DNA from: an uncultured bacterium
GTDB taxonomy: Bacteria > CSSED10-310 > CAZUFC01
Length of the DNA stretch: 47,128 nt
Assembly: GCA_964619725.1 (NCBI GenBank)
Contig: CAZUFC010000064.1
Span: forward strand, 1-47,128
Direction: 5' to 3'
Below the pieces are notes generated by a model that saw only the letters and a program-made list of their open reading frames with translations, had not been told where the DNA came from and searched no databases. The stretch's first letter is position 1. Every line of letters starts with the position of its first letter. The position numbers and the translations under genes are program-made. Positions 4,487-43,807 of the stretch are shown one piece after another.

Positions 4487-4521
4487 TCATTGCGAAAGAC
4501 GATCCGTAAAAAATCTACAGC

Positions 4522-4630
4522 GAAGCGATGATTTCCTGATAAATAAAAATCGCTAATTTCTCGATCAAAAAGTCGCAGCACCTGTTCGCTACGGTATGCC
4601 GGGAAAAAATGAGTTTGGGGACAGGCGCTA
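4522..4630. repeat. Repeat family B, degenerate copy (non-autonomous element end)
   Basis: TGATAAATAAAAATCGCTAATTTCTCGATCAAAAAGTCGCAG...GAGTTTGGGGACAGGCGCTA aligns with 46963-47075 (TGATAAACAAAAAAATCGCTCATTTCTGGATCAAAAACCGCAG...GAGTTTATGGACAGGCACTA). Confidence 0.7.
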
Positions 4631-5806
4631 ATAAAGGTAATACTGCCTGACCCGTTCCCGGTATTCTTGAATCGAAACATCGAATTGACTGAGGATTGCG
4701 GAGGGCTCCGACCCCTTTTCCAGGTCTTCTCGAATTTTGGGATTCCCCGTCAGGATGTCGATGGGCATTTTTTCATTTTCATATTCGTATGGCGGCTGTT
4801 TCCATCTGAAATCATCTCGGTAGGAATGCATGACCTCATGCAACACGGTCAATCCCGTCAGATATGACTGATAGCGGTCTCGATCCGTAACGTGAATACG
4901 GCATCCCCCGCATAGTTTTCCTTTCCACTTTTGAAAAGTCGGCAGGAAATGCATGGGGCGAAAGCGAACGCCGGGGAGATTCTTCTCGTTTAATCTGTAC
5001 GACGTTTCATAGGGATCAATAAAGGGGGCCCCGAATATTTCAAAAGGGCGCGTTGTCCCTCGTCCTTCCGATACGTTTGTCCCTTCCAGCAGACACATTC
5101 CCGGATAGACGACGGCGGTTTCAAGAGTCGGCATATTGGGAGAAGGCATAACCCAGGGCAATCCCGACTCGTCAAACCACATGTTTCGTTTCCATCCTTT
5201 CATTGGCATGATTTCCAGTTCCAGATCGATTTTATGCTCTTTCGATATATAACGCGCCAGCTCACCCAGCGTCAAAGAATGCCTCACGGGGATCGGAAAA
5301 CGTCCCACGAAAGAAGCGTATTCCGTTAAAAGCAGATTCCCCTCAATATATTTTCCAGTTATAGGATTAGGGCGGTCCATCACCACAAGCGGTATGCCGG
5401 CTTCACTGCATGATTCCATTAAATAAGACAAGGTTGATCCGTATGTATAGTAACGAGTGCCCACATCCTGAAAATCCACTATCATTACGCTGAGATTTTC
5501 GATCCATTCGGGTAAAGGTTTTCGGTGAGCGCCGTATAATGAAAAAACGTCAATTCCTGTGCGGGGTTCTTTGAAACCTTGCCATTCGACCATATTATCC
5601 TGGGTTTGACCGTGGATGCCGTGTTGAGGGCCGAAAAGCGCTTTTACTTGTATTTCGGGATGCCCGTAAAGCAAGTCGAATGCATGGTTCAGATCGGCGT
5701 TAACCGAAGCAGGGTGAACGGCTAGTCCCGCATGGCGGTTTTTACAATAATCAGGAACGCACTCCAGGAATGCATCCAATCCGCTCTTAATTTGTTTTTT
5801 CTTCAT
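4628..5806 (-). CDS. namZ: Exo-beta-N-acetylmuramidase NamZ / DUF1343 (YbbC) family
   Basis: Motifs LFGPQHG, DFQDVGTRYYTY, DRPNP, SPNMPT, EGTNVSEGRGT; no obvious signal peptide. Confidence 0.9.
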   Translation of the reverse strand: MKKKQIKSGLDAFLECVPDYCKNRHAGLAVHPASVNADLNHAFDLLYGHPEIQVKALFGPQHGIHGQTQDNMVEWQGFKEPRTGIDVFSLYGAHRKPLPEWIENLSVMIVDFQDVGTRYYTYGSTLSYLMESCSEAGIPLVVMDRPNPITGKYIEGNLLLTEYASFVGRFPIPVRHSLTLGELARYISKEHKIDLELEIMPMKGWKRNMWFDESGLPWVMPSPNMPTLETAVVYPGMCLLEGTNVSEGRGTTRPFEIFGAPFIDPYETSYRLNEKNLPGVRFRPMHFLPTFQKWKGKLCGGCRIHVTDRDRYQSYLTGLTVLHEVMHSYRDDFRWKQPPYEYENEKMPIDILTGNPKIREDLEKGSEPSAILSQFDVSIQEYRERVRQYYLY

Positions 5807-7185: not shown

Positions 7186-8235
7186 TCAAACTCTGGACAG
7201 CACGCCTTTATCCTGCAGTCGATGATAAGCGAGATCGTGATGGATGAATCCCTTTTTCACCAGGTCTATCAGTGATTGATCCATGGTCTGCATACTATCT
7301 TTACGGCCTCCCTGGATCAACGACGTCAACTGATGAGTTTTTCCTTCCCGGATAACGTTGCCTATGGCCGGCGTGCCCATCATGATTTCCACGGCAGGCA
7401 CTCGACCCTTTCCGTTTTTCATGGGTAAAAGCTGCTGGGAAACGACTCCTTTGATGGTCGCTGCCAGGACGTAGCGGATGTGATTCTGTTCGCTTTCGGG
7501 GAAGACGTCTATAATTCTGTCCACCGTTTTAACCGCGCTGTTGGTATGAATGGTAGCAAAAACCAGACTTCCGGTTTCTGCGGCGTTCAGCGTCAACGTT
7601 ATCGTTTCCAGGTCCCTCATCTCACCGACAATAATAATGTCAACATCCTGACGGCCGCCGGACCGCAAAGCCTTCGCGAAAGATTCCGTCTCCATCCCCA
7701 CCTCACGCTGCGTTATGATGCAGTTTTTATTGGTGTGAATGAATTCTATCGGGTCCTCTATCGTTAGAATGTGCTTCTTCTTCTTTCTGTTGATAATGTC
7801 AGTGAGCGACGCCAGAGTTGTCGTTTTTCCAGACCCTGTGGCGCCCGTGATCAGCACCAGTCCGCTGTTCAATTCCGTAAGGGAATAAAGCGCCTCAGGC
7901 AAATTCAAATCGTCCAGACTCAGAATCTGCTCGGGTATCAGACGAAATACGCCGCTGATTCCATGCTGCTGGTTGAAAACCGTCACGCGAAAACGTCCGA
8001 TGTCATCTGCCATATAGGCGAAATCATATTCAAGCTGCTGCTCGAATTTGCTTATCTGCTCATTGGTCATGATTTCCATCAGCGTTTCTTCGCCGACTTC
8101 ATAGCTGATGATCGGGTGGTCCAGATAAAAAAGTTCCCCGTCTATCCTTATCAACGGCGGCGCTCCAACGTTATAATGAAGATCAGACGCATTATGTTCG
8201 GCTGCTATTTTCAGCAATTTATCAATCTTAGGCAT
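7186..8235 (-). CDS. pilT: Type IV pilus retraction ATPase, PilT/PilU family
   Basis: ASDLH, Walker A GATGSGKTT, TIEDPIE, GEMRDLET, AAETG, TIHTNSA, AIGNVIRE (AIRNLIRE-like). Confidence 0.92.
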   Translation of the reverse strand: MPKIDKLLKIAAEHNASDLHYNVGAPPLIRIDGELFYLDHPIISYEVGEETLMEIMTNEQISKFEQQLEYDFAYMADDIGRFRVTVFNQQHGISGVFRLIPEQILSLDDLNLPEALYSLTELNSGLVLITGATGSGKTTTLASLTDIINRKKKKHILTIEDPIEFIHTNKNCIITQREVGMETESFAKALRSGGRQDVDIIIVGEMRDLETITLTLNAAETGSLVFATIHTNSAVKTVDRIIDVFPESEQNHIRYVLAATIKGVVSQQLLPMKNGKGRVPAVEIMMGTPAIGNVIREGKTHQLTSLIQGGRKDSMQTMDQSLIDLVKKGFIHHDLAYHRLQDKGVLSRV

Positions 8236-8270: not shown

Positions 8271-9350
8271 TCAGTTCCTGGTTGCAGCCAGAAGAAACCT
8301 TTTCTTGTTCGCCGCACGTATTTTCGCTTCCTTGTAATCGATCTTACGCCTGCGCACCAGTTCCATCAGCGAATCGTCCATCAATTGCATTCCCCGCTCT
8401 GATCCGGTCTGCATCACGGAATGTATTTGATATGTCTTGGAATCTCGTATCAGTCGCGCTATAGAGCCTGTTCCGACCAGTATTTCCGACGCCACAACCA
8501 TCTCTTTGCCATGCGCTGACGGTATCAGTTGTTGAGTAATTATACCTCTTAACGATTCCGAAACCATCATGCGAATTTGGAGTTTCTGAGTTCCCGGAAA
8601 AATATCGATGATCCGGTCTATCGTTTGCACGGCGCTTTTCGTATGCAGCGTACCGAATACCAGATGACCGGTTTCCGCAGCGGTTATAGCCATCGATATA
8701 GTCTCCAGGTCCCGCATTTCTCCGACCAGGATGATGTCAGGATCTGCCCTCAGAGCCTGTTTCAGAGCTATTGCGAAAGACCGCGTATGGCGCCCTACTT
8801 CACGCTGATTTACCAGGGACTTTTTGTTGGTATGAATGAATTCAATCGGGTCTTCCACCGTTATGATGTGTCTTCGCTTGTTTTCGTTGATGTAATTCAG
8901 TAAAGCTGCCTGGGTAGTCGACTTGCCGCATCCCCGCGGACCCGTCACCAGAACCAGCCCCTGATTAAACTTGGTGAATTCCTTTACGACAGGAGGAAAT
9001 CCGAGCGTGTCGATATGAGGTATCTTGTTGGGGATCACGTGGAAAACGGCGTCCATGCCTTTTCTTTGAAAAAAAGCATTGCATCTAAACCTGTTCAGAT
9101 TGGTTATCTTGTATGCGAAATCGACTTCCTTTTTTTCTATCAGATAACGCCTTAATCGAGGTTCCAGTATCTCAAATATCAGCTCTTTGGTCTCATGACT
9201 CGTCAGCGGCGTATGAGCAATAGGCAGAAGTTCGCTTTTTATCCTTGCTTTCGGCGGCAAACCGACGCATATATGAAGGTCCGATCCGCCGACTTCTATG
9301 GTTTTCATTAAAAATTGATCGATTTTTGCCATCGATGCTCCTTTAATCAA
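8271..9350 (-). CDS. pilT: Type IV pilus retraction ATPase, PilT/PilU family (second paralog; start may be the MAKID Met)
   Basis: GSDLH, Walker A GPRGCGKST, TVEDPIE, GEMRDLET, AAETGHLVFGTLHT. Confidence 0.9.
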   Translation of the reverse strand: MIKGASMAKIDQFLMKTIEVGGSDLHICVGLPPKARIKSELLPIAHTPLTSHETKELIFEILEPRLRRYLIEKKEVDFAYKITNLNRFRCNAFFQRKGMDAVFHVIPNKIPHIDTLGFPPVVKEFTKFNQGLVLVTGPRGCGKSTTQAALLNYINENKRRHIITVEDPIEFIHTNKKSLVNQREVGRHTRSFAIALKQALRADPDIILVGEMRDLETISMAITAAETGHLVFGTLHTKSAVQTIDRIIDIFPGTQKLQIRMMVSESLRGIITQQLIPSAHGKEMVVASEILVGTGSIARLIRDSKTYQIHSVMQTGSERGMQLMDDSLMELVRRRKIDYKEAKIRAANKKRFLLAATRN

Positions 9351-9506: not shown

Positions 9507-9578
9507 CAATCCCGGCTTTAAGCTGTGAACCGTTGTTTTATCAAGAGGATAACAGATACTGCGCCGAACGGAGAAGGA

Positions 9579-10553
9579 ATGGAGACGCTATTATCAATTC
9601 AGGGATTAAAGACCTATTTTTACACCGATGACGGCGTAGTCAAAGCCGTCGACGACGTCAGCATCGAGATAGGTAAAGGCGAGTGCCTGGGATTAGTGGG
9701 GGAAAGCGGGTGCGGAAAAAGCGTGACGTCTTTATCCATAATGCGGCTTATTCCTACGCCGCCCGGTAAGATCGAAGCGGGAACCATCAGTTTCAACGGC
9801 AAGAATCTCCTGGAACTCGATGAAAAGTCGATGCGAAAGATAAGGGGAAACGACATTTCGATGATCTTTCAGGAGCCGATGACCTCTTTGAATCCGGTTT
9901 TTACGATCGGAAACCAGATAGGCGAGGCTATCGAGCTGCATCAGCAGAAGAAGGGCAAGGCGCTTGAGGAAGAGGCAGTGAAGGCTTTGAAGGCAGTAAG
10001 TATTCCTGATCCGTATCAAAGGTTGACGGAATATCCTCACCAGTTGAGCGGTGGAATGCGGCAAAGAGTAATGATAGCCATGGCTTTATCCTGCAGACCT
10101 TCTCTCCTGATAGCCGATGAACCGACGACGGCCCTGGACGTCACTATACAGGCTCAAATTCTGGAACTCTTGAAATCCCTGCAGGACAGATTCTCCCTTT
10201 CCATGCTTCTTATCACTCATGATTTAGGAGTGGTGGCGGAGACGGCTCATCGCATAGCGGTAATGTATGCGGGGCATATTGTCGAAGAATCGACCACATA
10301 TAACATTTTTAAAAACACCAAGCATCCTTATACTCAGGGTCTGCTGAAATCTATTCCCCGAATCGACCGGTCCAATATCCATAAAGAAAAGCTGGCGACG
10401 ATAAAAGGCGTGGTTCCTGAATTGACCAATTTGCCGCAGGGATGCCGGTTTCAGGACCGTTGTCCGCATGTTCGAGACGAATGCCGGCAAGGACTGCTTC
10501 CATTGAAGCAGATATCAGACGATCACAAGGTCCGTTGCGTGCTTTATTATTGA
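9579..10553 (+). CDS. oppD: Oligo/dipeptide ABC transporter ATP-binding subunit
   Basis: [32 protein letters not shown]-terminal [10 protein letters not shown] oligo_HPY region; start placed at ATG 9579 after GAGAAGGA. Confidence 0.9.
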
Positions 10554-10567
10554 GAAGGAACAGGAAA

Positions 10568-11611
10568 ATGAACGCAGAATCATCAAATTCGCGATTGTTG
10601 GACATCCGAAACATGAAAAAATATTTCCCCGTAACGAAGGGAGTCTTTTCCAAGGTACACGCCTGGGTTAAAGCCGTCGACGGAATTTCGTTCTACATCA
10701 AAAAAGGCGAGACGCTGGGTCTGGTGGGCGAAAGCGGATGCGGCAAAACCACAGCGGGACGTTGCATTCTAAGGCTGATCGAACCGACTGAGGGAGAAGT
10801 CCTTTTCGACGGAACAGACCTTCTCGAATTGAATAAAAAACAGATGAGAAGAATGAGACGCCAGTTGCAGATCATCTTTCAGGACCCTTATTCATCCCTT
10901 AATCCCAGAATGACCGTAGGAAACATCATCGGCGAAGCCATCTCCATTCATAAACTGGCGAAAGGAAAAGAAAAAGAAGATCGTATCAAGGAGTTGCTCA
11001 AGGTCGTCGGACTGGACCCTTCTCATATCAGACGTTATCCTCATGAATTCAGCGGCGGACAGCGACAGAGAATCGGCATAGCCAGAGCCCTGGCAGTCGA
11101 TCCGAAATTGATAATCGCAGACGAACCAGTCTCGGCCCTGGACGTCTCCATTCAAGCTCAAGTCATTAACCTGTTGATGGAACTTCAGGAAAAATTTGAT
11201 TTGACATACCTTTTTATCGCTCACGATCTCAGCGTCGTGGAACACATCAGTAATCGCGTAGCCGTGATGTACCTCGGGAAACTTATGGAACTAGCCGCCG
11301 GAAGAGAACTTTACGACAACCCGTTGCATCCATATTCCCAGGCTTTGCTTTCCGCAGTGCCTATTCCTGATCCGACCGCCAGGAAAAAAAGAATCCTGCT
11401 GGAAGGCGATGTTCCAACTCCGATTAATCCGCCTCCGGGATGTCCATTCCATGTCAGGTGCCCCAAGGCAATCGAGATATGCAGTAAAGAGATGCCGGAA
11501 TTTTATGACAGGGGAAACGAGCATTTCGTTGCCTGCCATTTGGTTAAGAGTGGATCGAACGATAGGAGCGGTGCAATAGAAGAACAATTGTCGAAAGACG
11601 GCAACAAATAA
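10568..11611 (+). CDS. oppF: Oligo/dipeptide ABC transporter ATP-binding subunit
   Basis: [52 protein letters not shown]; start ATG 10568 avoids overlap with oppD. Confidence 0.92.
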
Positions 11612-24913: not shown

Positions 24914-25744
24914 TCAAGTAACTCCTTTTAATCGCTGGCAGTTCGGACAGATGAAATGAGATGTTGAACCTGTTTTTATTTTTTCAACTGCTGTGCCGCA
25001 ATTCGGGCATTTTTTTCCTTCCTTGTAACCGACTCCCAATCTGTCCATATTGTACCCGCCTCGAGTGCCGAAAAAATCCTGTTCGAATGAGAGTCCTCCC
25101 GCATCGATGCTTTCCTGAAGAACATCCTGTATAGCATGGAAAAGTTCTGTTTTTTGTCGTTTGCTGAGAGCGGGGATTGGCGTTTTGGGATGCAGTCCGA
25201 CTCTGAAAAGTATTTCCTGTATGTAGACATTTCCTATGCCGGCGATATTTTTCTGGTTCATCAGAAACGGTTTAACGGCTCCCCTTCTCCCTTCCAGCAT
25301 GCGCAAGAATTTTTCCTCAGTCAACTCGCTGTCCAACGCATGAGGACCCAGGGCGGATAATTCTTTATGCCGGTACAAATGCGTTGCTTTTACCAGGTGT
25401 ATTTTACCGAACCACCAGAAATGAATGGTGTATCCGCTTCCGTCGTGGAACCGCATCAGGAATTGATATTTTCCCGAAGGATTTTGCCCGGAAGCAAGAT
25501 AGAACATTTCAGCGCCCATGCCCAGATTAGTCAGGAGAAGAGCGTCATCGTTCAGGGGAGTAATAAGCCATTTGCCCTTGGGATAAGTTTTGCCGAGTGT
25601 TCGATGAATCGTTTTTCGTTTAAATTCGGGAACAGAAATATTGAGATTTTTAGGTTGCCGGGCGACGATATTTTTTATTTTTTTTCCTTGTACCGTTTGG
25701 GATAATTGACGAGCCAAAACGGTTATTTCAGGCAATTCAGGCAT
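24914..25744 (-). CDS. Fpg/Nei family DNA glycosylase, atypical
   Basis: N-terminal PELPE, KGKW, H2TH LMNQKNIAGIGNVY, zinc finger CPNC..CPNCQ. Confidence 0.9.
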   Translation of the reverse strand: MPELPEITVLARQLSQTVQGKKIKNIVARQPKNLNISVPEFKRKTIHRTLGKTYPKGKWLITPLNDDALLLTNLGMGAEMFYLASGQNPSGKYQFLMRFHDGSGYTIHFWWFGKIHLVKATHLYRHKELSALGPHALDSELTEEKFLRMLEGRRGAVKPFLMNQKNIAGIGNVYIQEILFRVGLHPKTPIPALSKRQKTELFHAIQDVLQESIDAGGLSFEQDFFGTRGGYNMDRLGVGYKEGKKCPNCGTAVEKIKTGSTSHFICPNCQRLKGVT

Positions 25745-25763: not shown

Positions 25764-27521
25764 TCACGCTCCTTTCCTGTATAGTTTTGTGGAACCGATA
25801 AGCATAGCGAAACCGAGAATAAGAATAAAGCTTCCAAGCCTGTTAAGAGCGGGGATAGGAGGCGGAGTGACGACGATAGTTGGAGTAGCGGTATAGTAAG
25901 GCGTTTGAGTGCTTGTCGGGGTTATGGTTGGAGTGTCTGTCGGAATTTCGGTCACGTAACTGGTGGGTGTTCGAGTAGGCGTAATGGTTGTTGTGGGCGA
26001 CAATGTGGGAGTTGCGCTGGAAGTCGGAGTGCCGGTTATAGTTGGGGTGAACGTAGGCAGCGGCGATTCTGTCGGTGAGAGCGTAGCTGTGAGCGTCGGC
26101 GAAAGAGTGGCTGTAGGAGAGGGCGTAGCGGTCGGAAGCGGGGTGGCGCAATTAAAGGTGAAGTAGCCGTTTTGAATTTCCCAGCCGCTCACGTCGTCAC
26201 GAAGATGAGAAAAATAGAGCAAACTCTGCTCTCCATTTTCACAGTCCGCGCATACCACATCAAAGTTTAAACCGACCAGGGTCCCGTTGCTGCCCGCAGG
26301 GATAAATTCAGGATAGGAGTAACCGGTAATTCGTATTTCACCGTTTGTCGGTTCGTTGCACCCGAACATCACCCAGCTCGGATCGAGTTCTCCGGCATCG
26401 CAGGAAAGATAATCGAGCATTTCCGGGTCATAGTTCACATAGAACACGAAAGCATCCACGTCCGTATCGGGATTCGCCATAGTCACGTCAATGGTCACGG
26501 CATCCCCTGTGCACCCTGATACATCGGCTATTTCAAGATGATCGTTTCCGACAGGAGTGGGTATCTGCGTGGGAACAGGAGTGGGACAGACATAAGTAAA
26601 TATGCCGTTATCGATTTCCCAGCCTTCCAGATCGTCCTGAAGCAGGCTGAAGGAAAGGTGACATTGATCATTATTCTGACAGGAAGCGCAATTGACTCGG
26701 AACCTAAGAACGGCCAGACTGCCTTCGCTGCCGGACGGTATAACCTCTGGATGAGAAAAACCGGTGACTATGACCGTTCCCGAAGTCGGTTCATTGCATC
26801 CGAACATGACCCATCCGGGGTCGAGTTCGCCTTCAAAACAATCGACGAATTCGAGCATATCCGGACAATAATTCAAGTGGAAAACGAACGCGTCTACAGG
26901 AGTATCCGGATTGGATATAAGGACCTCCACGTCGACGACATCCTCGTTGCATCCTGAAAAATCCTGCAACTGAATAATATCGCTGCTTACAGGCGTAGGA
27001 ATGACCGTGGGCGTCGGCGCTTCGCAGTAATACGTGAACACGCCGAACTCCGTATCCCAGCCGGAGATATCGTCCTGAAGATTAGTGAAATAAAGCATGC
27101 TCTGATCGCCGTTTTCGCAATTTTCGCATTTGACTGTAAAGCTGATCTGCATCAGCGAACCCTCGCTTCCCGCCGGAATACTTTCCGGATAAGAAAAACC
27201 GGTTGCCCTTATTTCACCCGGCGTCGGTTCATTGCAGCCGAAAAGCACCCAGCCGGGATTTAAAGAACCCTCCGAACATTCATTGAATTCAAGTTTTTCC
27301 GTATCGTAATGCAGGGTAAAACCGAAAGCATCAACGGTAGTATCAGGATTGGATATGTTCACATTGGTCACTACCGTATCTTGATTACAGCCGGTAAAGT
27401 TTTCCAGTGCAATCTTATCTCCCTTGTTCGCCGCATCCGTCGTTCCTGATGGGACAACCGTTCCGGCAATCAACAGAACAATCAGAAAAAGCGACGGGAA
27501 TGACGGGTAAATTTTTTTCAT
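25764..27521 (-). CDS. Three-cohesin mini-scaffoldin with Thr/Pro stalk and IPTL-CTERM-like anchor
   Basis: Signal peptide; three ~132-aa repeats (V.ISNPDT.VDAF.F.L.YD.E.L..G.L..W..FGCNEPT.G.I..TGFS.P..IP.GS.G.L..L.F.V); ~100-aa TPT-rich region; IPALNRLG + TM + KLYRK. Confidence 0.85.
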   Translation of the reverse strand: MKKIYPSFPSLFLIVLLIAGTVVPSGTTDAANKGDKIALENFTGCNQDTVVTNVNISNPDTTVDAFGFTLHYDTEKLEFNECSEGSLNPGWVLFGCNEPTPGEIRATGFSYPESIPAGSEGSLMQISFTVKCENCENGDQSMLYFTNLQDDISGWDTEFGVFTYYCEAPTPTVIPTPVSSDIIQLQDFSGCNEDVVDVEVLISNPDTPVDAFVFHLNYCPDMLEFVDCFEGELDPGWVMFGCNEPTSGTVIVTGFSHPEVIPSGSEGSLAVLRFRVNCASCQNNDQCHLSFSLLQDDLEGWEIDNGIFTYVCPTPVPTQIPTPVGNDHLEIADVSGCTGDAVTIDVTMANPDTDVDAFVFYVNYDPEMLDYLSCDAGELDPSWVMFGCNEPTNGEIRITGYSYPEFIPAGSNGTLVGLNFDVVCADCENGEQSLLYFSHLRDDVSGWEIQNGYFTFNCATPLPTATPSPTATLSPTLTATLSPTESPLPTFTPTITGTPTSSATPTLSPTTTITPTRTPTSYVTEIPTDTPTITPTSTQTPYYTATPTIVVTPPPIPALNRLGSFILILGFAMLIGSTKLYRKGA

Positions 27522-27583: not shown

Positions 27584-30500
27584 TTAGTCCAGCAGTCCGT
27601 AACCCGTCGTTGTCTCTTTTAAATAATGCTCCCTCGATTGGAACCGCAGCTCATCGCCGTTTTTTTGAAACCGCAGGTCGCAGAAGGTAAAGCGACCGGC
27701 GCCCGCAGTGAATTCCGTCAAATCGTCCTTCAGATCAAAAAGACTGAGAGCGCTTTGTTCGCCAATTCTGCAGTCCGCTGAGAGGACTTTGAATTTGAGC
27801 AGCGCCAGGGTACGATTTTCACCGGCGGGAATATAGTCCGGATAGGCAAAACCAGCAAATTTAAGATAACCAGGCTCCAATTCATTGCACCCGAACATGA
27901 TCCATTGCAAATCCTGTTCGACTACTTCCCAATCGGTCAACTCAAGCATTTCAGAATCGAACTCAAGCGAGAATCCCAGGGCATCGATTTCCGTATTCGC
28001 GTTTCTGATCATAATTTCAACGGTAATTTCCTCATTGACGCAACCTGCGGCATCATTCACCCAAATGACGTCGGCTGCTTGATCAAGACTCTTTTCAGTA
28101 ACTGCATCGAGCGGCATGCCGTAGGGCTCGATTGATTCCGAATCGACTTCCGCATGCGGCGCATCTATTTTCGAATAGCGACCGAAAAGTTTTTCGTCGG
28201 CCTGATCGCCTGTGAACATTCCCTTGGCAATAGCGTCTGCGCATTCGCAATCTTCTCCCAGGATGAAAATATGCATGCACTGGGCATCTCCGATAGTCAC
28301 CTGTCCGTCACCCATGCAATCCGCCGAGCACCATTCTTCGTAGGAGGGCGAATAGGCGCCCAGAACGATCATATATGTCATCTGGCAGTCTTCACTGGTG
28401 ATTTCTCCATCATTGTTGACGTCGCCGTCGTTAATGCACGGTTCAGGCGTAAACGTCGGTTCAGGCGTCGGAACCATGGTCGGGGGTTCGGTCGGCATTG
28501 GAGTGAATGTTGGCATCATAGTCGGCGTCAACGTCGGGACGGGAGTCGGAGAATAATCGGTCCAGTCCAGGTAATAGACGTCTTCGCTTACTCGCTCCGC
28601 CCCTATATTGCTGTTGCCGGTATCCACACAATCATCCAGTCCGAATTGCGTGTCGAGGGGACCGTCTTCTTTTCCCCAGAAATTATACGATGCGTCGATG
28701 CAGGTTGAAGTCGTCGCATTGTAAACGGCATAACTGATGTGATCGCTGAAATAGTTCGTGTTGGAAGCAGAACCGCCGATAAGAGGTTGAGCGCTTGACG
28801 TAATATAAATGCCGTATCCGCTTCCTGCAGCATTATTCGAGTGTATGTTGCAATTAACGATCTCAGGCATCGAAGTGGACCCGACAGCATAAATTCCGTA
28901 GCCGCTATTATAACGAATTACCGCTCCGTCTATCAGGGAATGGTTCATCGCAGCGGAGGCTTCCTGGATGTAAATCCCGTAAGAAGGATTATTTTCTATT
29001 ACTCCGCCGTTTATGCTGACGGTTCCGGGTTCGGCGTAAACGCCGGAACTCGTGTTATCGTGAATCCAGCAGTCTGTCAATGTCGGACGTGCATTGTTGG
29101 TGTAAGCCCTGACGCCGTTGCCGGCGCCGTAGCTGATTTCACAATTCGAAAGAACCGGCGAACTTTCGTAACATTGCACGTTTTCATACGCGGCGCCGGC
29201 GCCTCCATACTCAATTACGCAATGCTGCAACGATGTGATGGCATCGTCGGAATGAGCGGCGAAGTAAATTCCGTGCCAGTCGCCCGGAGCCGGATTAGGC
29301 ATATCGGACGTGAATATTACAGGTTCCGAAGCCGTGCCTTCAGCGACAAGGGCTCCCGGATAGTTCGCGTTGGAATCGTGACCGATCCAGAGGTAAATGC
29401 TGTTGATCATTAATTCCGCACCCGGTTCGATCGTCCAGGTCGTAACCTGATCAGCTCCGTCTTTACCCTGAACAAATACATGCGCTGCTGAATGAATATA
29501 ATACGGAATTCCCTGATCGACCCACACGCTGTCTTTCGTTATGGTGTCGCCGTATACGTAGAACTGCTGATAATCGTTGTCGACGTAGGCGCAGCCTGTG
29601 ACGCCGTGTGTTTGCGAAGCGTACATCCTGACGGGATAATTTGAATTTTCTGAGAATGTGCAGCCGTTCACCGTCGCAGAATCGTATCCGCCGTTGCAGT
29701 ACAACCCCCAGTTGTTGCCCGTTACCGTCGAATCCTGGAGAGTTACATGTGAAGAATTGTTCACATATATGCCGTAGCTTTCGTTATCATGGATCATGCA
29801 ATTGATGAGAGAGGGATCGGCATTCGTATTGGCGTATAATCCATAGCTCGTTGAATTGCCGATATAGCAGTTTTCCAGGACAGGAGCAGCATTGGAGTGT
29901 GCATACACGCCGTATCCTGAATTATAATTGAAAATGCAATGGCGGAAAACAGGCGATGAATCATAGCAATAGATGTTTTCATAGCCGCTGTAACCGCCGT
30001 ATAGAACATTGCAGTATTCCATCAGGCATGATGCATCATCGGAATATCTTGAGAAATAAATTCCATCCCAATAACCGGGAGAAGCCGACCCGCGCGGTCC
30101 AAAAATAATACGTGCTGAGTCGGTTCCAAGCGCCTGTAATCCTCCGGTCAGCGTGCTGTTGCTGTCGTGACCGATGTACAATCCCCTCTGAGTATTGAAA
30201 TGCAGTTCTGAGCCGGCTTCAATCGTCAGTACGGTTATGTCCTCTTCTCCGTCCTGACCCTGAACGTAAACGTCGCCTTCTATATAATAGGGTTCGTTCA
30301 TTTCCCAGTAACTGTCATAGACGATGGTGTCTCCCCTGACGTTTATGAATTCATAAAGGTTATCCGCGTAAGAGCAATCCGATATATTCCTGACGTTGCC
30401 TGCATAAATGTGAATCGGATAAGCGTTATTCTCGGTGAATGAGCAGTTCGTTATAAGCGGCACGTCTGCAGCGCCGTTGCAATAGAGCCCATAGCTCTGA

Positions 30501-33500
30501 TTCAAAGAAATCGTTGAATCGCTTATCGTCAGCTCCGTTCCGTTATACAGATAGATGCCGTAGGAGGTGTTGTCATGGATGTTTGAAAATGTGATCTGAG
30601 GATTCGAGCCGTTGCGGCTGTAAACTCCTATGCCGCTCGCATAGCCTATCTCACAATTGTCTATTACGGGATTCGAGGCGTTATGGGCATAAACGCAGGC
30701 GCCGTTAGAATACAGTATCCGGGAATGGCGTATCGTCGGTGAACTGGCCGTGCAATAAATTCCCTCAAAACTGCTGTAACCGCCGTAGAGCAGATCGCAA
30801 TATTCCAGCAAACAAATCGAATCGTCGGCATAATCATAGAAATATATGCCGTCCCAATACCCAACGCTTTCGACATCGCCTGTAAAAATGATGTTTTCTC
30901 CGGATGTTCCCTGGGCTAAAAGCGCACCGGGATAATTCACATCATTGCTGCCGATAAAAAATCCTGTTGCGGAATTGAACTCAAGTTCCGTCCCTTCCTC
31001 AATTTCCAGAGTCGTTACTGTGTCATCTCCGTCTGTTCCCTGGACCGTTACGTCGCCCGCAATGTAATAAGGCTTAAGTTGATCATACCAGAAGGAGTCC
31101 AGACTCACGGTGTCTCCGACTACATAAATCCGGTCAAGTCCTCCGTTATAGACGTAGGAATTCAGAGGCAAACCTATTTTCCATACGTTTCGGGCATATA
31201 CGTAAATCGGATTGTTGATGTTGCCGACGAAAGAATTCCCGGTTATGTAAGGAGCCGTCGTCGCATTGTTGCAGTAAATGCCATAACCGCCGTTCCCGCC
31301 GATAATGTTGTCCGTTATCATGGTTTCGCAATCGCCGGACAGATAAATTCCCGCATATCCGCCCCCGCTGTCGGAAATGATGCTGTCGCTGATGCTACCG
31401 TTACAATTGGAAAAAACTATGTTGTACCAGCCGCTTTCCACAATCGTGCAGCCCTCGATCACTGGAGATGCGTAAGTCGCATAGAATCCCGTGTAAGCGG
31501 AATAACGGATGGTACAATTGTAAAGCTGAGGACTCGAATAATTGCAATGCACCGGGTAATGATAAGCATTTGAGAAATACTGTCCGCCGTACTCAATGGT
31601 CGTCCAGTCTAATTGACATAAAGCATCCTCAGCATAAACCGCAAAATAAATGTCTCCCCATGATCCGGGACTCGGAGAAACAGATGTGGAAGTTATTAAT
31701 ACGGGATTACTTTCTGTCCCTTCACAGAGAAAACCGCCGGGATAACTCGCATTCGAATCGTGACCGATATAAATTCTGGCCGTACTCGGCAGCTTGATCG
31801 TCGTTCCCTCCTGCAACGTTAAAGTCGTCACGCTGTCCGCACCGGACTCGCCTCTCACCGTGATGCCGCCTGACATGTAATAAGCGGTATCCTGGCCTTC
31901 CCAGACAGCATCCTTAGATATGGTCTGCGAAACGACATAAATGTCCTTGTCCAGAGCATTTCCCGTTATGTCGGGACAGAATGTCGCATAGATGTAAATC
32001 GTATAATCCGCAATGTTGTTCGTGATCGTGTTGTCCGAAATGACCGGGCCTGTTCCGGCATCGTCGCAGTATATCCCGTAGCCGGCATTTGAATCGATCA
32101 GACAATCGCTGATCGCAGGGTCAGACTCGTTGCCGTTCAAATAAATCCCGTGACTACCGTTGTTTAAAATATCGCAGGCCGTAATCGTCGGACTGCTTTC
32201 ATTCGCGTATATTCCATACGAAGTGCAATCGCTGATTTCGCAATTCAGGATGCCGGGCGATGAATAATAACAGTAAATTCCATAACTGTAGGCGTTCGTG
32301 ATGATTGAATCTTCAATTATTGGATTCGCATAATTGCAATATACTGACCGAATATCGTAACCGCCGTTTTCCAGGATGCAATATTTCAGATGACAGGTAA
32401 AATCATCGCTGAAATTGGAAAAATAAATGCCGTCCCAGTATCCTGAGCCGACTCGCCTGAATATGATTTCTTCATCTGCAGCGCCGATTGCGCTGATTGA
32501 ACCGGGCTGATTGGGATCGGAATCATGCCCGACGGTTATGCCCAGAGTTCCCGTAAATTCAACTATTGTCCCGGGCTCAATCGTTACTTTGGTTAAGAAA
32601 TCAGGCCCGTGCTGCCCCCGGATGTAGACTTCACCCGTAATCCGGTAAGGAATATCATAATTTTCCCATATAGCATCCTCGGCCACCGTCGCGCCCAAAC
32701 ACTCTATGTAAGAATTCCCATTTCCAGAAAAGGAATTGCCCGACGTATATCCGATACGATTAGAGCCCAGGCGCAGAGGGACACTCGTGTTGTCGTTGAA
32801 AGTCGAGTCCGCTATGGAAATCATACAGGTATTAGCGGAGCAGTATATGCCGTAGCCGTTGTTCCCGGAAAAATCTCCGGAACTGATCGAGAGCGTGCCC
32901 GTGGTATCCGCATATATGCCGTAGGACGAATTGTCGAAACTGGATGAGTAACTCAGGGTAGGACTGGATGTGTTCTGGCTCCTGATTCCATAAGATGAGC
33001 AATCATGAATCTGCACGTAATCGAGAACCGGCGCGCTGTCCCCCAGTATCCTAATTCCGTAATTGCTGCTTTCCCTCAATTCGCAATGACTGAATTCAAC
33101 GTCTGATGACTCCAGGTAAATCATCGTAGAATAGTTGCCGCCGCCATATTCGATCGTCGTATGTTCTAGTACGCTCGCATCCGAATACTGCCTGAAATAA
33201 ATGTTGTACCAATAGCCGCGGGTATGCTCCGTCTGATTCGAAGTGATTAAAACTGGATTCGCTTCGATTCCCTGACAGACTAGCGTTCCCGGACTTGTCG
33301 TCGTCCCGATGTACATCGCACGATTCTGATTGAACCGTATCTCAACTCCCTCGCCGATCGTCAATGTCGCCCCATCATACACCGTGATGTCACCCGTCAC
33401 GATGTATATCCCGTCCGTCGCCGGACTGGTCTCACCTAAAAACGTATCCACGGTTATGTTCCCGGAAATGTTTACCCACGCTCCAACTTCAATGCTCAGC

Positions 33501-33550
33501 ACCAGCGAAATTATCGCTGAAATTAATAAACTTCTCCCCACTTTTTTCAT
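27584..33550 (-). CDS. Giant secreted beta-helix repeat protein (6 units) with Pro/Thr linker, dockerin and C-terminal cohesin
   Basis: Signal peptide; six ~260-aa units (TLTIE.G..F..IG..PG.L.A.GT..GYWDGIYF..EYGG); DASYNFWG cap; dockerin DGDVNNDGEITSED..ADCMGDGQVTIGDA (~28235-28438); cohesin (~27680-28075); SD GGAGG. Confidence 0.88.
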   Translation of the reverse strand: MKKVGRSLLISAIISLVLSIEVGAWVNISGNITVDTFLGETSPATDGIYIVTGDITVYDGATLTIGEGVEIRFNQNRAMYIGTTTSPGTLVCQGIEANPVLITSNQTEHTRGYWYNIYFRQYSDASVLEHTTIEYGGGNYSTMIYLESSDVEFSHCELRESSNYGIRILGDSAPVLDYVQIHDCSSYGIRSQNTSSPTLSYSSSFDNSSYGIYADTTGTLSISSGDFSGNNGYGIYCSANTCMISIADSTFNDNTSVPLRLGSNRIGYTSGNSFSGNGNSYIECLGATVAEDAIWENYDIPYRITGEVYIRGQHGPDFLTKVTIEPGTIVEFTGTLGITVGHDSDPNQPGSISAIGAADEEIIFRRVGSGYWDGIYFSNFSDDFTCHLKYCILENGGYDIRSVYCNYANPIIEDSIITNAYSYGIYCYYSSPGILNCEISDCTSYGIYANESSPTITACDILNNGSHGIYLNGNESDPAISDCLIDSNAGYGIYCDDAGTGPVISDNTITNNIADYTIYIYATFCPDITGNALDKDIYVVSQTISKDAVWEGQDTAYYMSGGITVRGESGADSVTTLTLQEGTTIKLPSTARIYIGHDSNASYPGGFLCEGTESNPVLITSTSVSPSPGSWGDIYFAVYAEDALCQLDWTTIEYGGQYFSNAYHYPVHCNYSSPQLYNCTIRYSAYTGFYATYASPVIEGCTIVESGWYNIVFSNCNGSISDSIISDSGGGYAGIYLSGDCETMITDNIIGGNGGYGIYCNNATTAPYITGNSFVGNINNPIYVYARNVWKIGLPLNSYVYNGGLDRIYVVGDTVSLDSFWYDQLKPYYIAGDVTVQGTDGDDTVTTLEIEEGTELEFNSATGFFIGSNDVNYPGALLAQGTSGENIIFTGDVESVGYWDGIYFYDYADDSICLLEYCDLLYGGYSSFEGIYCTASSPTIRHSRILYSNGACVYAHNASNPVIDNCEIGYASGIGVYSRNGSNPQITFSNIHDNTSYGIYLYNGTELTISDSTISLNQSYGLYCNGAADVPLITNCSFTENNAYPIHIYAGNVRNISDCSYADNLYEFINVRGDTIVYDSYWEMNEPYYIEGDVYVQGQDGEEDITVLTIEAGSELHFNTQRGLYIGHDSNSTLTGGLQALGTDSARIIFGPRGSASPGYWDGIYFSRYSDDASCLMEYCNVLYGGYSGYENIYCYDSSPVFRHCIFNYNSGYGVYAHSNAAPVLENCYIGNSTSYGLYANTNADPSLINCMIHDNESYGIYVNNSSHVTLQDSTVTGNNWGLYCNGGYDSATVNGCTFSENSNYPVRMYASQTHGVTGCAYVDNDYQQFYVYGDTITKDSVWVDQGIPYYIHSAAHVFVQGKDGADQVTTWTIEPGAELMINSIYLWIGHDSNANYPGALVAEGTASEPVIFTSDMPNPAPGDWHGIYFAAHSDDAITSLQHCVIEYGGAGAAYENVQCYESSPVLSNCEISYGAGNGVRAYTNNARPTLTDCWIHDNTSSGVYAEPGTVSINGGVIENNPSYGIYIQEASAAMNHSLIDGAVIRYNSGYGIYAVGSTSMPEIVNCNIHSNNAAGSGYGIYITSSAQPLIGGSASNTNYFSDHISYAVYNATTSTCIDASYNFWGKEDGPLDTQFGLDDCVDTGNSNIGAERVSEDVYYLDWTDYSPTPVPTLTPTMMPTFTPMPTEPPTMVPTPEPTFTPEPCINDGDVNNDGEITSEDCQMTYMIVLGAYSPSYEEWCSADCMGDGQVTIGDAQCMHIFILGEDCECADAIAKGMFTGDQADEKLFGRYSKIDAPHAEVDSESIEPYGMPLDAVTEKSLDQAADVIWVNDAAGCVNEEITVEIMIRNANTEIDALGFSLEFDSEMLELTDWEVVEQDLQWIMFGCNELEPGYLKFAGFAYPDYIPAGENRTLALLKFKVLSADCRIGEQSALSLFDLKDDLTEFTAGAGRFTFCDLRFQKNGDELRFQSREHYLKETTTGYGLLD

Positions 33551-33774
33551 TTAAAAAATCTCCTCCGTTAACTGAATTGAACCGATGGTTGTCTCAGGAA
33601 CTTTTCTCCCGCATTATAAAAATGCAAAAGTCCCCCCTGTTTGAAAAACACACTTGACCGTTTTTTTCTTCTCATGCCTTTTCCTGCGGCGCCTGTCCCG
33701 CAGTTGATGATGTGATGATTCAGTTCGACCAATACTCGAAGAAAAAAATCTTCATTTGATCACAATCAAGATTA

Positions 33775-33804
33775 ATTTTATTGAAAAAATAATGCAAAAG
33801 TCAA
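33775..33804 (-). promoter_or_regulatory. Putative promoter of the dockerin/scaffoldin operon
   Basis: Minus strand TTGACT, 18 bp, TAAAAT, about 225 nt upstream of ATG 33550. Confidence 0.4.
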
Positions 33805-34065
33805 GCGAAGCGATGGAATTTTTCGAGTTCCAATCATAAGTAAATTATTGTATAATTATATTTTTGAGTATTCAGACAGGATTGGACTTCAATGGCATTC
33901 GAATTGGAGAGTTCCGGACATTTCTGATGAAAGGAGATTGACAAAGGCTGACAGGTAGTTTAAAGATTTATTCAGTGATTCGGCGGTAAAGAATGGCGAA
34001 GCTGTGCAGCAGTAAAGAGCTTGCATCGTCTAACGAGACGCTTGCGGACATAAGGAGGTAAAGAA

Positions 34066-35187
34066 ATGGCGGATCAGGCGAGTACTTTATTGGAGCTGGC
34101 GAAGGTCCGTGCGGATAATCGTGAGGTATTAAACGCGATAGCAGGTGTTCAGGGGACGGCCCTGGGATTGAAAAATTATGATCCAGCGACGGACCTGCCG
34201 TCGGGTGATCCTTGCATTATCGTATATGTACCGCACAAGATACATGAGAAATTTTTATCAGAGGCGATGACCATCCCGGAGCGTCTGACGAGCAGAGACG
34301 GGCTACTGGAAGCGCTGACGGACGTAGTTGTAACCACAGTTCCCGATACTGCGGAAGAAGCGCCTGAATTGAGCGAAGAAAATAAAGCGCTTATCGGAAC
34401 GCTTCAGTGGATGGACGGCAAGATGGACTATATCGGTCCCGGCGTTCAGATAGGAGCGGCTGAAGTTGGAAGCGAATCGCTGGAGACATATGTCGGTACG
34501 GTGGGTTATATCGTTCGTTCCAAAACAGACCCTGAGCTGATCGGCTTCCTCACAAACCAGCATGTAGGACTTCATGCCGGACATTCTCTTTATATTCCGG
34601 GATTCAGGCAGAATGCACTTCGTATCGGCGTAACCCGGGTCGTTCTGGAGCATAAACCGGACGATGAATGGATTACGGGAATCGACGAAAAATTCGCATA
34701 TGTTCGTACGGATTCAGCATTTGTCGTTGTTGAAGAAAACATCGTACCTCACCTGAAAAATGAAATATTGAACGTAGGCCCCATAGGCGAGGTTTACGCA
34801 CCGGATTTGAATTCCATGGAGATCATAGGGAAGCCGGTGAAAAAAATCGGAAGAACCACAGGATTGCAATACGGCGTAATCACGGCATTCGGATACGGCA
34901 TACCGGGCAGCGACGAAATGATCGACAGATACATAAACAAGGAACCGGCCAATTTCTATACCGACTTTCTTATCGCCCCCCGAACGCCCAGTCGGATATT
35001 CAGCACGCACGGCGATTCCGGTTCCCCCATTCTGCTCGATACGAACGACGCTGACGCTGACAGACCTTTGGCTCTCCTCTGGGGCGGATGGCCTGCGGAC
35101 ATAGGCAGGAACAAGGGAGTCGAAGATTTAACCTACGGCATAAACCTAAACAGGATCCTGAACGAATTGAATCTGGAATTTCTCTAG
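34066..35187 (+). CDS. NAL1-like trypsin-fold serine protease, no signal peptide
   Basis: Triad motifs GFLTNQH, VRTDSAF, HGDSGSP; KIGRTTGL; LLWGG; SD AAGGAGG. Confidence 0.88.
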   Translation: MADQASTLLELAKVRADNREVLNAIAGVQGTALGLKNYDPATDLPSGDPCIIVYVPHKIHEKFLSEAMTIPERLTSRDGLLEALTDVVVTTVPDTAEEAPELSEENKALIGTLQWMDGKMDYIGPGVQIGAAEVGSESLETYVGTVGYIVRSKTDPELIGFLTNQHVGLHAGHSLYIPGFRQNALRIGVTRVVLEHKPDDEWITGIDEKFAYVRTDSAFVVVEENIVPHLKNEILNVGPIGEVYAPDLNSMEIIGKPVKKIGRTTGLQYGVITAFGYGIPGSDEMIDRYINKEPANFYTDFLIAPRTPSRIFSTHGDSGSPILLDTNDADADRPLALLWGGWPADIGRNKGVEDLTYGINLNRILNELNLEFL

Positions 35188-43018: not shown

Positions 43019-43807
43019 TTATCCGCTTATCTTCTGACATTGCGGGCAGACATATGCGCTTCGCTGATTTACTTTGACCTTTTCCAGTTTTTTCCCGTCC
43101 CGGGGACAAAGGCCGTCCCCGCGGCGATGAGGAATCACGAAATGTGACGGCATCCGCCCTGGATCAGCCTGCACATCGATAGCTTTTTCCAGCGTTTCCT
43201 TAATGTTATCAAAAAGGTCGGCCAATTGTTTTTCAGTTAATTCTTTCACTTCCGTCTTAGGATGCATTCGGGCCTGGAATAGCGCCTCGTCCGAATAAAC
43301 ATTACCGATGCCGGCGAAAATTTGCTGGTTCATGAGGGCGGATTTTATAACGCCGCGCCTTCCTTTCATTTTTTCGATGAATTCCTTTTTATCGATCATG
43401 AGAACATCAGGTCCAAGTTTCTGCTGTTTTATATACTGTTGGGGTTCTTTCACCATCATCACTTTTCCGAGCATGCGCATACTGACGTACGCCAGGTGAT
43501 ATCCGTTTGTAAAGCTGAACAGAATTCGAGTATGTTCGGGCGTTTTTTCAATATCTTTGAAGTATTTCAACCTGCCGGTCATTCCGAAATGAAATAGCAA
43601 AAAATCATCATCCATTTTAACGAACATATTTTTGCCGTGGCGGAAAGCAGCGAGAAATTCTTTTCCCTTGAGGTTTTCCTTTAATTTACGTGTAGAAATG
43701 CCTTCCAGCGCTTTTTTATTTTTTACATCAACGTTTTTAATTTTTTTGTGGAGCGAAACGGCTTCCAGGTATCGTTTGAAAACTTCTATATCAGGAAGTT
43801 CAGGCAT
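43019..43807 (-). CDS. Fpg/Nei family DNA glycosylase
   Basis: PELPD, RHGK, HFGMTG, H2TH LMNQQIFAGIGNVYSDEALFQA, finger CPRD..QRSAYVCPQCQ; SD AGGAGG. Confidence 0.92.
   Translation of the reverse strand: MPELPDIEVFKRYLEAVSLHKKIKNVDVKNKKALEGISTRKLKENLKGKEFLAAFRHGKNMFVKMDDDFLLFHFGMTGRLKYFKDIEKTPEHTRILFSFTNGYHLAYVSMRMLGKVMMVKEPQQYIKQQKLGPDVLMIDKKEFIEKMKGRRGVIKSALMNQQIFAGIGNVYSDEALFQARMHPKTEVKELTEKQLADLFDNIKETLEKAIDVQADPGRMPSHFVIPHRRGDGLCPRDGKKLEKVKVNQRSAYVCPQCQKISG

Follow-up and report, generated by a model that had tools for sequence, protein, structure and literature searches.

Can a protease regarded as specific to plants have a true counterpart in a bacterium and, if so, how are the two related? 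The question is raised by a protein of 373 amino acids (aa), here called P0001, which is encoded on a 47,128-nucleotide contig of an uncultured bacterium; this whole stretch of DNA is referred to below as the window. An initial annotation had presented P0001 as a full-length bacterial counterpart of the plant serine protease NARROW LEAF 1 (NAL1) and had suggested that the lineage may lie close to a bacterial donor or recipient of a horizontal transfer. The analysis described here bears out the first claim for the core of NAL1, and the family tree is best read as pointing to a horizontal transfer that connects prokaryotes with streptophytes; the window lineage is largely placed away from that event. 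Overall, we hold with good confidence that P0001 is an intact, cytoplasmic, stand-alone protease of the NAL1 family, that this family is scattered across prokaryotes with the plant proteins nested in it by transfer, and that the clade of P0001 (clade A below) is not the one nearest to plants.

An intact NAL1 core in a bacterial contig

The gene, its parts and the spacer in front of it lie at the following positions of the window.

34066..35187, + strand: complete NAL1-family serine protease gene (373 aa, P0001), TAG stop included, from the list of open reading frames (ORFs) and the translation
34048..34058, + strand: ribosome-binding site, with AAGGAGG inside the stretch, about 7 nt 5' of the ATG at 34066; read from the sequence, it supports the annotated start
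34075..34305, + strand: N-terminal alpha/beta domain, residues 4-80; Pfam PF25608 (NAL1_N), homologous to the rice NAL1 ATP-binding domain
34411..35184, + strand: chymotrypsin-fold serine protease domain, residues 116-372; Pfam PF25819 (Nal1_C) and Foldseek
34561..34563, + strand: codon CAT of catalytic His166 in the TNQHV motif, aligned with rice H234
34711..34713, + strand: codon GAT of catalytic Asp216 in the RTDSAF motif, aligned with rice D291
35017..35019, + strand: codon TCC of catalytic Ser318 in the GDSGS motif, aligned with rice S385
33551..34065, no strand: divergent intergenic region of 515 bp, AT-rich (38% GC), presumed promoter region; largest ORF at most 54 aa, no partner gene

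Two Pfam domains lie side by side in P0001. The Nal1_C model matches residues 116-372 over positions 12-263 of its 268 (E = 7.5e-31; 107.7 bits against a cut-off of 26.1), and directly N-terminal to this protease domain the NAL1_N model matches residues 4-80 (E = 5.7e-13; 48.9 bits, cut-off 27); no NCBIfam model matches the protein. A HMMER search of the PDB sequences returned 9 distinct sequences at E<=1, every one of them a rice NAL1 construct (best E 3e-31). According to the available part of PMC12012508, rice NAL1 is 582 residues long; its N-terminal domain spans 1-88, its ATP-binding domain 89-172 and its serine protease domain 184-458, and H234, D291 and S385 form its catalytic triad. 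In the HMMER alignment with chain 8has_A, residues 3-372 of P0001 pair with rice 89-443, the NAL1_N part with rice 89-172, and H166, D216 and S318 fall on the rice triad. All three catalytic residues are present in 49/49 aligned sequences (rows) of clade A, and Asp216 is invariant in three family alignments (A1, A2 and A4).

Much of what the initial annotation had read from the letters stands. The reading frame is exactly where it had been placed, the His-Asp-Ser triad is intact, and all of the quoted motifs occur in the translation: QASTLLELAKVRA, GTALG, GYIVRSKT..IGFLTNQHV, DDEW..YVRTDSAF, FYTDFLI, GDSGSPILL..RPLALLWGG and GINLNRILNELNL. A signal peptide is indeed absent; the first 40 residues are charged and lie inside the folded N-domain, with a pLDDT of 97 in the first two blocks. 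The likeness to NAL1 had been described as running end to end, which is so for the bacterial protein (residues 3-372) but not for the rice protein, of which only 89-443 of 582 are covered.

The fold tells the same story. The AlphaFold2 model of P0001, built from a 72-row alignment, has a pLDDT of 94.4 and a pTM of 0.93. In a Foldseek search of the PDB, ranks 1-34 are rice NAL1 chains, matched over the whole length with E down to 3.5e-34 and TM-scores on the query (TMq) of 0.75-0.82; next come the Lysobacter L5 and L1 proteases, NAPase and alpha-lytic protease, at 5.6e-11 or weaker and with a TMq of about 0.4 over the protease domain only. Whether plant NAL1 would score better than generic S1 proteases had been named beforehand as a decisive comparison, and it scores far better (3.5e-34 vs 5.6e-11). 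Superposition of the model on solved NAL1, also proposed at the outset, holds over the whole length (TMq about 0.8). A two-copy complex prediction (72-row alignment A4, made without controls) gave a median score of 0.29 against a mark of 0.42, a result that neither favours nor disfavours self-assembly. With both Pfam domains and a whole-length fold match, P0001 is confirmed as an intact bacterial counterpart of the NAL1 core and a true member of the family.

Relation to the plant proteins

Full query length is covered by 134 of 220 family proteins; together with the ORFs of named loci, 175 distinct rows were aligned. FastTree runs on two row sets gave four groups: clade A (49 rows; P0001, Scalinduaceae, Gemmatimonadota and Pelagibius), streptophytes (21), clade B (34) and clade C (71). 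Names in the streptophyte clade are Rhododendron and Vitis NAL1, Adiantum, several Closterium, Mesotaenium (Mesen1), Sphagnum, Selaginella, Diphasiastrum, Arabidopsis and many angiosperms, and the named eukaryotes among the matches listed are all Zygnematophyceae or land plants. When a Closterium protein served as query, 120 of 870 matches were listed; the named ones are streptophytes, with no new prokaryotes among them.

A more careful maximum-likelihood tree was computed in IQ-TREE under LG+C20+F+G4 with posterior mean site frequencies (PMSF) from 71 of the 175 rows (13 of clade A, 12 plant, 19 of B and 27 of C); near-duplicates and the long-branch rows P0130, P0126, P0148, P0150, P0136 and P0094 were left out, and the tree is unrooted. 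Its main groupings, with ultrafast bootstrap (UFBoot) and Shimodaira-Hasegawa-like approximate likelihood ratio test (SH-aLRT) support in that order, are these.

Plants: 100/100, stem 1.09
Clade A: 100/100, stem 0.80
Plants and clade B: 100/97, clade A outside
Clades A and B and plants: 97/90
Plants and subclade B1: 87/52

A quick IQ-TREE run gives plants and clade B an SH-aLRT of 97, and both FastTree runs return the same grouping.

Pairwise scores rank the clades as well. Five plant cores were compared by BLAST with all rows, grouped as in the 175-row FastTree. For four of the queries, median scores are 194-208 bits against clade B (about 36-37% identity), 132-144 against clade C and 99-110 against clade A (about 29-30%); the Closterium query P0157 gives 138, 102 and 75 bits against B, C and A, respectively. 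The best clade-B matches, which include proteins of Methanoperedens (L009) and of a Methanobacteriota genome (L012), reach 240-246 bits and 39-41% identity, vs 122-129 bits and about 30% for P0001. By this measure no prokaryotic group resembles plants less than clade A does.

On these trees, streptophyte NAL1 is recovered as one long-stemmed clade nested in prokaryotic diversity. This nesting favours movement from prokaryotes to streptophytes, and the best explanation would be one such transfer before the split between Zygnematophyceae and land plants. Clade B, and not the window clade A, appears to be the prokaryotic clade nearest to plants. Branching near the plant clade had been put forward as what the transfer proposal predicts for P0001, and since clade A is not nearest to plants, this largely fails.

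How near, then, did the window lineage stand to the transfer? The suggestion that it, or its clade, was close to the bacterial donor or recipient looks unlikely to us. To be sure, P0001 is homologous to the NAL1 core over its full length, the group of plants and B has clade A as its sister rather than as a distant branch (97/90), and an approximately unbiased (AU) test leaves a grouping of plants with A standing (lnL 10.8 lower, p 0.207). Yet the union of plants and B excludes clade A in the careful tree, the quick tree and the FastTree runs alike, and the scores of plant cores against B are roughly double those against A. Position 38 of P0001, the equivalent of rice R122, is basic in 21/21 plant and 17/34 clade-B rows and aromatic (F/Y) in 48/49 clade-A rows. 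A NAL1-like gene is present in 0/40 other genomes sampled around the window genome, including 0/13 of its own phylum. In addition, the NAL1-like proteins of two Scalinduaceae metagenome-assembled genomes (MAGs) are 69% and 60% identical to P0001, vs 51% for a window PilT and its best copy in either MAG, which fits lateral spread among bacteria. Judged by these sequence comparisons, the lineage of the window genome probably acquired its gene laterally.

The gene in its genome

The window is one contig of a 9.17-Mb MAG of 344 contigs, 90.9% complete with 6.5% contamination. Its genes are bacterial: a hybrid histidine kinase, NamZ, two PilT-type ATPases, oligopeptide ABC ATPases and ExbB/ExbD/TonB, together with two Fpg paralogues, a beta-helix protein (1988 aa) next to a cohesin-domain protein, and membrane glycosyltransferase-like proteins. 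Judged by the gene content of the contig, there is no phage context around the NAL1-like gene. The composition of the gene is near that of the window genes (GC 0.504 vs 0.476+-0.024; GC3, at third codon positions, 0.543 vs 0.511+-0.040), and it is a single copy: neither NAL1_N nor Nal1_C has another match in the genome.

Could the gene nevertheless be foreign, from a plant or elsewhere, or the contig mis-binned, so that neither would be informative on this bacterium? The estimated contamination of the MAG, its 344 contigs and the lack of the gene in 13 phylum mates speak for this. Against it, the gene lies mid-contig among bacterial genes on 47 kb, is about 30% identical to plant NAL1 vs 69% to a bacterial MAG protein, and has a bacterial Shine-Dalgarno site and a neighbour-like composition. 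Mis-binning of the whole contig would leave the identity of the gene as it is. The gene is not plant DNA, and we regard contamination or mis-binning as very unlikely.

The gene had been described as stand-alone, and so it is: its upstream neighbour is divergent across the ORF-poor 515-bp spacer and its downstream neighbour is convergent. A promoter and terminator scan found 2 sites vs 3.4 expected from shuffles. No conserved partner gene emerged from six clade-A loci (L002-L007), in which the Pfam domains of 47 neighbouring ORFs, out of 80 called, revealed different flanking genes in every case: radical SAM/SPASM, lipase, ABC exporter, isochorismatase, PEMT and YceI-TPR. Small same-strand ORFs upstream of the gene in L002, L004, L006 and L007 were considered as a conserved partner and rejected, being mutually unrelated and absent from the window. 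Neither did a free-standing N-domain turn up, whether as a second copy in the whole genome (Pfam NAL1_N) or, in a search of 7094 six-frame segments with a hidden Markov model (HMM) of the N-domain, within 6 kb in the window and 48 related loci.

Distribution of the family and probable direction of transfer

A word-indexed protein search found 75 proteins at E<=1e-3, all with one or both NAL1 Pfam domains. The closest relative (69% identity) belongs to a Candidatus Scalinduaceae MAG, where it is annotated as a 'hypothetical protein', and other named matches come from Pelagibius, Rhodospirillaceae and Deltaproteobacteria. An exhaustive HMMER search of 50%-identity representatives yielded 193 at E<=1e-3, of which 102 at E<=1e-10; the later family set consists of the best 150 of these 193 representatives found from P0001.

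When one genome per GTDB species was scanned, 48 NAL1-like loci came up in named records; the scan used two peptide patterns from alignment A3, which favour clades A, B and similar sequences, and is not a census. Among the phyla spanned are Planctomycetota, Gemmatimonadota and Pseudomonadota. Loci at 55-69% identity to P0001 belong to Scalinduaceae, Pelagibius and Gemmatimonadales. At 29-40% identity there are archaeal loci (Methanoperedens, other Methanobacteriota, ANME-2 and Methanotrichaceae) and a broad range of bacterial ones (Mariprofundaceae, Thermodesulfobacteriota, Burkholderiales, Phycisphaerales, Brocadiaceae, Entotheonella, Spirochaetota, Paraglaciecola, two cyanobacteria, Chloroflexota, Verrucomicrobiota, Acidobacteriota, Binatia and LCP-89). 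Even in the order that holds the first Scalinduaceae MAG, only 6/81 genomes have a NAL1-like gene, and 3 of the 6 were already known holders. The family is old, wide but patchy across bacteria and archaea, and sporadic within lineages.

Many clade-C members (L014-L018, L020, L024, L040; P0057-P0071) are about 500 aa long, because NAL1_N is preceded in them by about 150 additional residues; in L016, this added part matches the N-domain HMM a second time, weakly and only partially. C-terminal extensions occur in L025 (676 aa), L022 (510 aa) and L042 (508 aa). Among 14 control genomes, that of Methanosarcina acetivorans has a Pfam NAL1_N match without a Nal1_C match; this culturable archaeon is thus predicted to encode a NAL1_N-type domain with no detectable Nal1_C protease domain.

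The opposite course, in which NAL1 of a plant or streptophyte alga moved into prokaryotes and then spread, is in our estimate even less probable than contamination. The tree is unrooted, and a root on the plant stem would make plants sister to all prokaryotic sequences. Several observations oppose it. No prokaryote falls inside the plant clade (100/100), which itself nests among prokaryotes; prokaryotic diversity is much larger, with three deep clades, many bacterial phyla and archaea, vs named eukaryotic matches that are, among those listed, all Zygnematophyceae or land plants. The prokaryotic proteins do not have the plant N- and C-terminal extensions, and the nearest folds outside NAL1 are bacterial alpha-lytic-type proteases.

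Returning to transfer from prokaryotes into plants, we give somewhat better than even credence to a fuller scenario. Plant NAL1 would stem from one transfer into the ancestor of Zygnematophyceae and land plants from a donor related to clade B; the prokaryotic proteins of about 350-370 aa would keep the ancestral nucleotide-clamped core; and plants would have added the hexamer lock and the corepressor-binding tail later.

Scarcely credible, finally, is the notion that P0001 is a generic secreted or degradative S1 protease of the alpha-lytic or streptogrisin type that shares only the chymotrypsin fold with NAL1: such proteases are the next-best fold matches (E from 5.6e-11 to about 1e-9), but they match the protease domain alone (TMq about 0.4, vs about 0.8 over the whole length for NAL1), the N-domain is specifically NAL1_N, NAL1 is the sole PDB family at E<=1 by sequence, and there is no signal peptide.

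Proposed function

What might such an enzyme do in a bacterium? In rice, the N-domain binds ATP-Mg as a structural cofactor through R120, R122, K123, K139, D166 and V167; hexamer formation, in which two trimers are locked together as the active cage, requires beta-strand 1 (48-53) to pair with beta-strand 11 (264-271); and NAL1(88-458) forms only a trimer, with impaired activity (PMC12012508, available part). The C-terminal tail of maize NAL1a carries an EAR-like motif that binds a TOPLESS-type corepressor (PMC12915138, available part).

By analogy with the rice enzyme, the N-domain of P0001 would bind a nucleotide as a structural cofactor through a site made up of K36, K58, D86 and V87. It would also pack on the protease domain of a neighbouring subunit to give a trimer, and the assembled enzyme would cleave selected intracellular proteins. 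K36, K58, D86 and V87 are conserved family-wide: of 175 rows, all have K/R at position 58, while 170 have K/R at position 36 and 170 have D at position 86. To our knowledge, the plant NAL1 substrates FZP and OsTPR2 do not exist in bacteria. P0001 would most likely be a self-assembling intracellular regulatory protease without a dedicated genetic partner, because the two-domain core is kept without the plant hexamer strand and corepressor tail. Escape of the trimer from auto-inhibition through the rice R438-D291 salt bridge was considered as part of the mechanism and dropped, since a hand mapping and the MAFFT column disagreed.

Several points weigh against the reading of P0001 as an intact family member that works much as rice NAL1 does and whose clade lies away from the plants. 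On the phylogenetic side, the AU test given above does not reject plants with A, all trees are unrooted, and the sister of plants within clade B is weakly resolved, the B1 rows being metagenomic proteins. On the biochemical side, activity, oligomer state, nucleotide binding and substrates of the prokaryotic members are all extrapolated from rice. Rice has four basic phosphate ligands, and for two of them, R122 and K123, clade A has no conserved equivalent; nucleotide binding may therefore be different or absent there. Moreover, the rice core equivalent to P0001 (88-458) is the trimer of impaired activity described in PMC12012508 (available part), and because of this the bacterial enzyme would have to reach its active state by another route. 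Lastly, given the 6.5% contamination of the MAG, the assignment of the contig to this organism is not certain.

Other features of the window and of related loci

The 13 genomes closest to that of the window are kin at the level of the phylum only, none sharing its family or genus code, and at 9.2 Mb the window genome is large for this phylum group (2.6-9.2 Mb). The phylum is a small one, with 13 further species represented among the genomes searched.

On the far side of the 515-bp spacer lies a gene for a secreted-looking protein of 1988 aa (27584-33550, - strand) with at least 8 right-handed beta-helix/NosD repeat blocks, a Pro/Thr-rich linker and a C-terminal region that is dockerin- or cohesin-like by eye. 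It adjoins a gene for a 585-aa protein with two Pfam Cohesin domains (25764-27521, - strand), and the two products may form a surface assembly of the cohesin-dockerin style. Two paralogues of the Fpg/Nei family of DNA glycosylases (24914-25744 and 43019-43807, both - strand) are less than 18 kb apart.

Further upstream, tandem genes encode PilT-type ATPases (7186-8235 and 8271-9350, both - strand); the two Scalinduaceae MAGs have this pair side by side as well (identity 51% and 37-39%). Two ORFs for oligopeptide-type ABC ATPases (9525-10553 and 10442-11611, both + strand) overlap by 112 nt as listed, and the second probably begins further downstream than this listing has it.

At the Scalinduaceae locus L002, a radical SAM/SPASM gene (4154-5506, + strand) stands two positions upstream of the NAL1-like gene with 69% identity to that of the window. 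Further downstream in L002 are a PD-(D/E)XK nuclease and a TraG/TrwB-type coupling protein. This region may be mobile; the window gene has no similar flank.

Significance

Rice breeding draws on NAL1 alleles (SPIKE, GPS and others); the cage structure of the protein was solved only in 2023-2025. In the open-access full-text literature (supplements not covered), we found no description of prokaryotic NAL1 homologues or of a transfer origin. The words bacteria, prokaryot and phylogen are absent from the available text of PMC12012508, and the description of NAL1 as plant-specific, on which the initial annotation had remarked, persists in a 2026 paper, where it is called a 'plant-specific serine protease' (PMC12915138, available part). 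The Pfam models NAL1_N and Nal1_C already capture prokaryotic proteins, and the family may already be listed in published catalogues of horizontal gene transfer in land plants. P0001 adds a member to a known family and is not a new kind of protein.

The wider point is independent of the window: a yield protease called plant-specific has a broad prokaryotic family and, probably, an origin by transfer. Prokaryotic homologues indicate that the core of ATP domain and protease is older than plants. Comparison with them also sets ancestral features (the triad and the K/K/D/V residues of the nucleotide site) apart from those that plants would have gained later (the hexamer-locking N-terminus and the EAR tail). 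Prokaryotic members, small soluble proteins, would lend themselves to biochemistry and structural work and, if the transfer reading is true, would be a tractable minimal model of how the protease assembles and is switched on. The value specific to the window is limited, as P0001 is one of many prokaryotic members, belongs to the clade least similar to plants and has uninformative neighbours.

Comparison with known systems

Outside the NAL1 family, the nearest folds are the alpha-lytic, Lysobacter L1 and L5 and NAPase S1 proteases (2ALP, 5MRT, 5MRR and 2OUA; E from 5.6e-11 to 1e-9). His-Asp-Ser chemistry is common to both sides, and the TM-score on the target is 0.70-0.80 over the protease domain, but identity is 16-20% and only about 190-200 residues of P0001 are matched. 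Proteases of this type are secreted and are made with a large pro-region and disulfides; P0001, in contrast, is without a signal peptide and has an N-domain of the NAL1_N type. A link to anti-phage defence was also sought, and no PADLOC-DB family matched P0001 or its relatives P0054 and P0069 at E<=0.01.

With rice NAL1 (PDB 7Y77, 8PME-8PN2 and 8HAS-8HAU), P0001 shares the two-domain core of an alpha/beta N-domain and a chymotrypsin-fold protease domain. It retains an equivalent of strand 11 (residues about 190-197), and rice R120, K139, D166 and V167 correspond to its K36, K58, D86 and V87. The two differ in that identity is only about 27-30%. P0001 begins at about the equivalent of rice 87, with nothing for rice 1-88 and hence no hexamer-locking beta-strand 1, and it ends at the equivalent of rice 443-444, without the C-terminal tail (rice about 459-582). 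The equivalent of R122 is Y38 and that of K123 falls in a gap; clade A also has an extra insert of about 10 residues (P0001 about 277-290) between the AFGY and YTD motifs. Since P0001 branches in another clade, it is not an orthologue of the plant gene.

A further comparison is with the clade-B proteins (L009-L013, L019 and L037), with examples from MAGs of Methanoperedens, Methanobacteriota, Thermodesulfobacteriota, Mariprofundaceae and Spirochaetota. These have the same architecture as P0001, at about 345-370 aa with both Pfam domains and no signal peptide. They are 37-39% identical to P0001; among named prokaryotic proteins it is they, and not the window clade, that stand nearest to plant NAL1.

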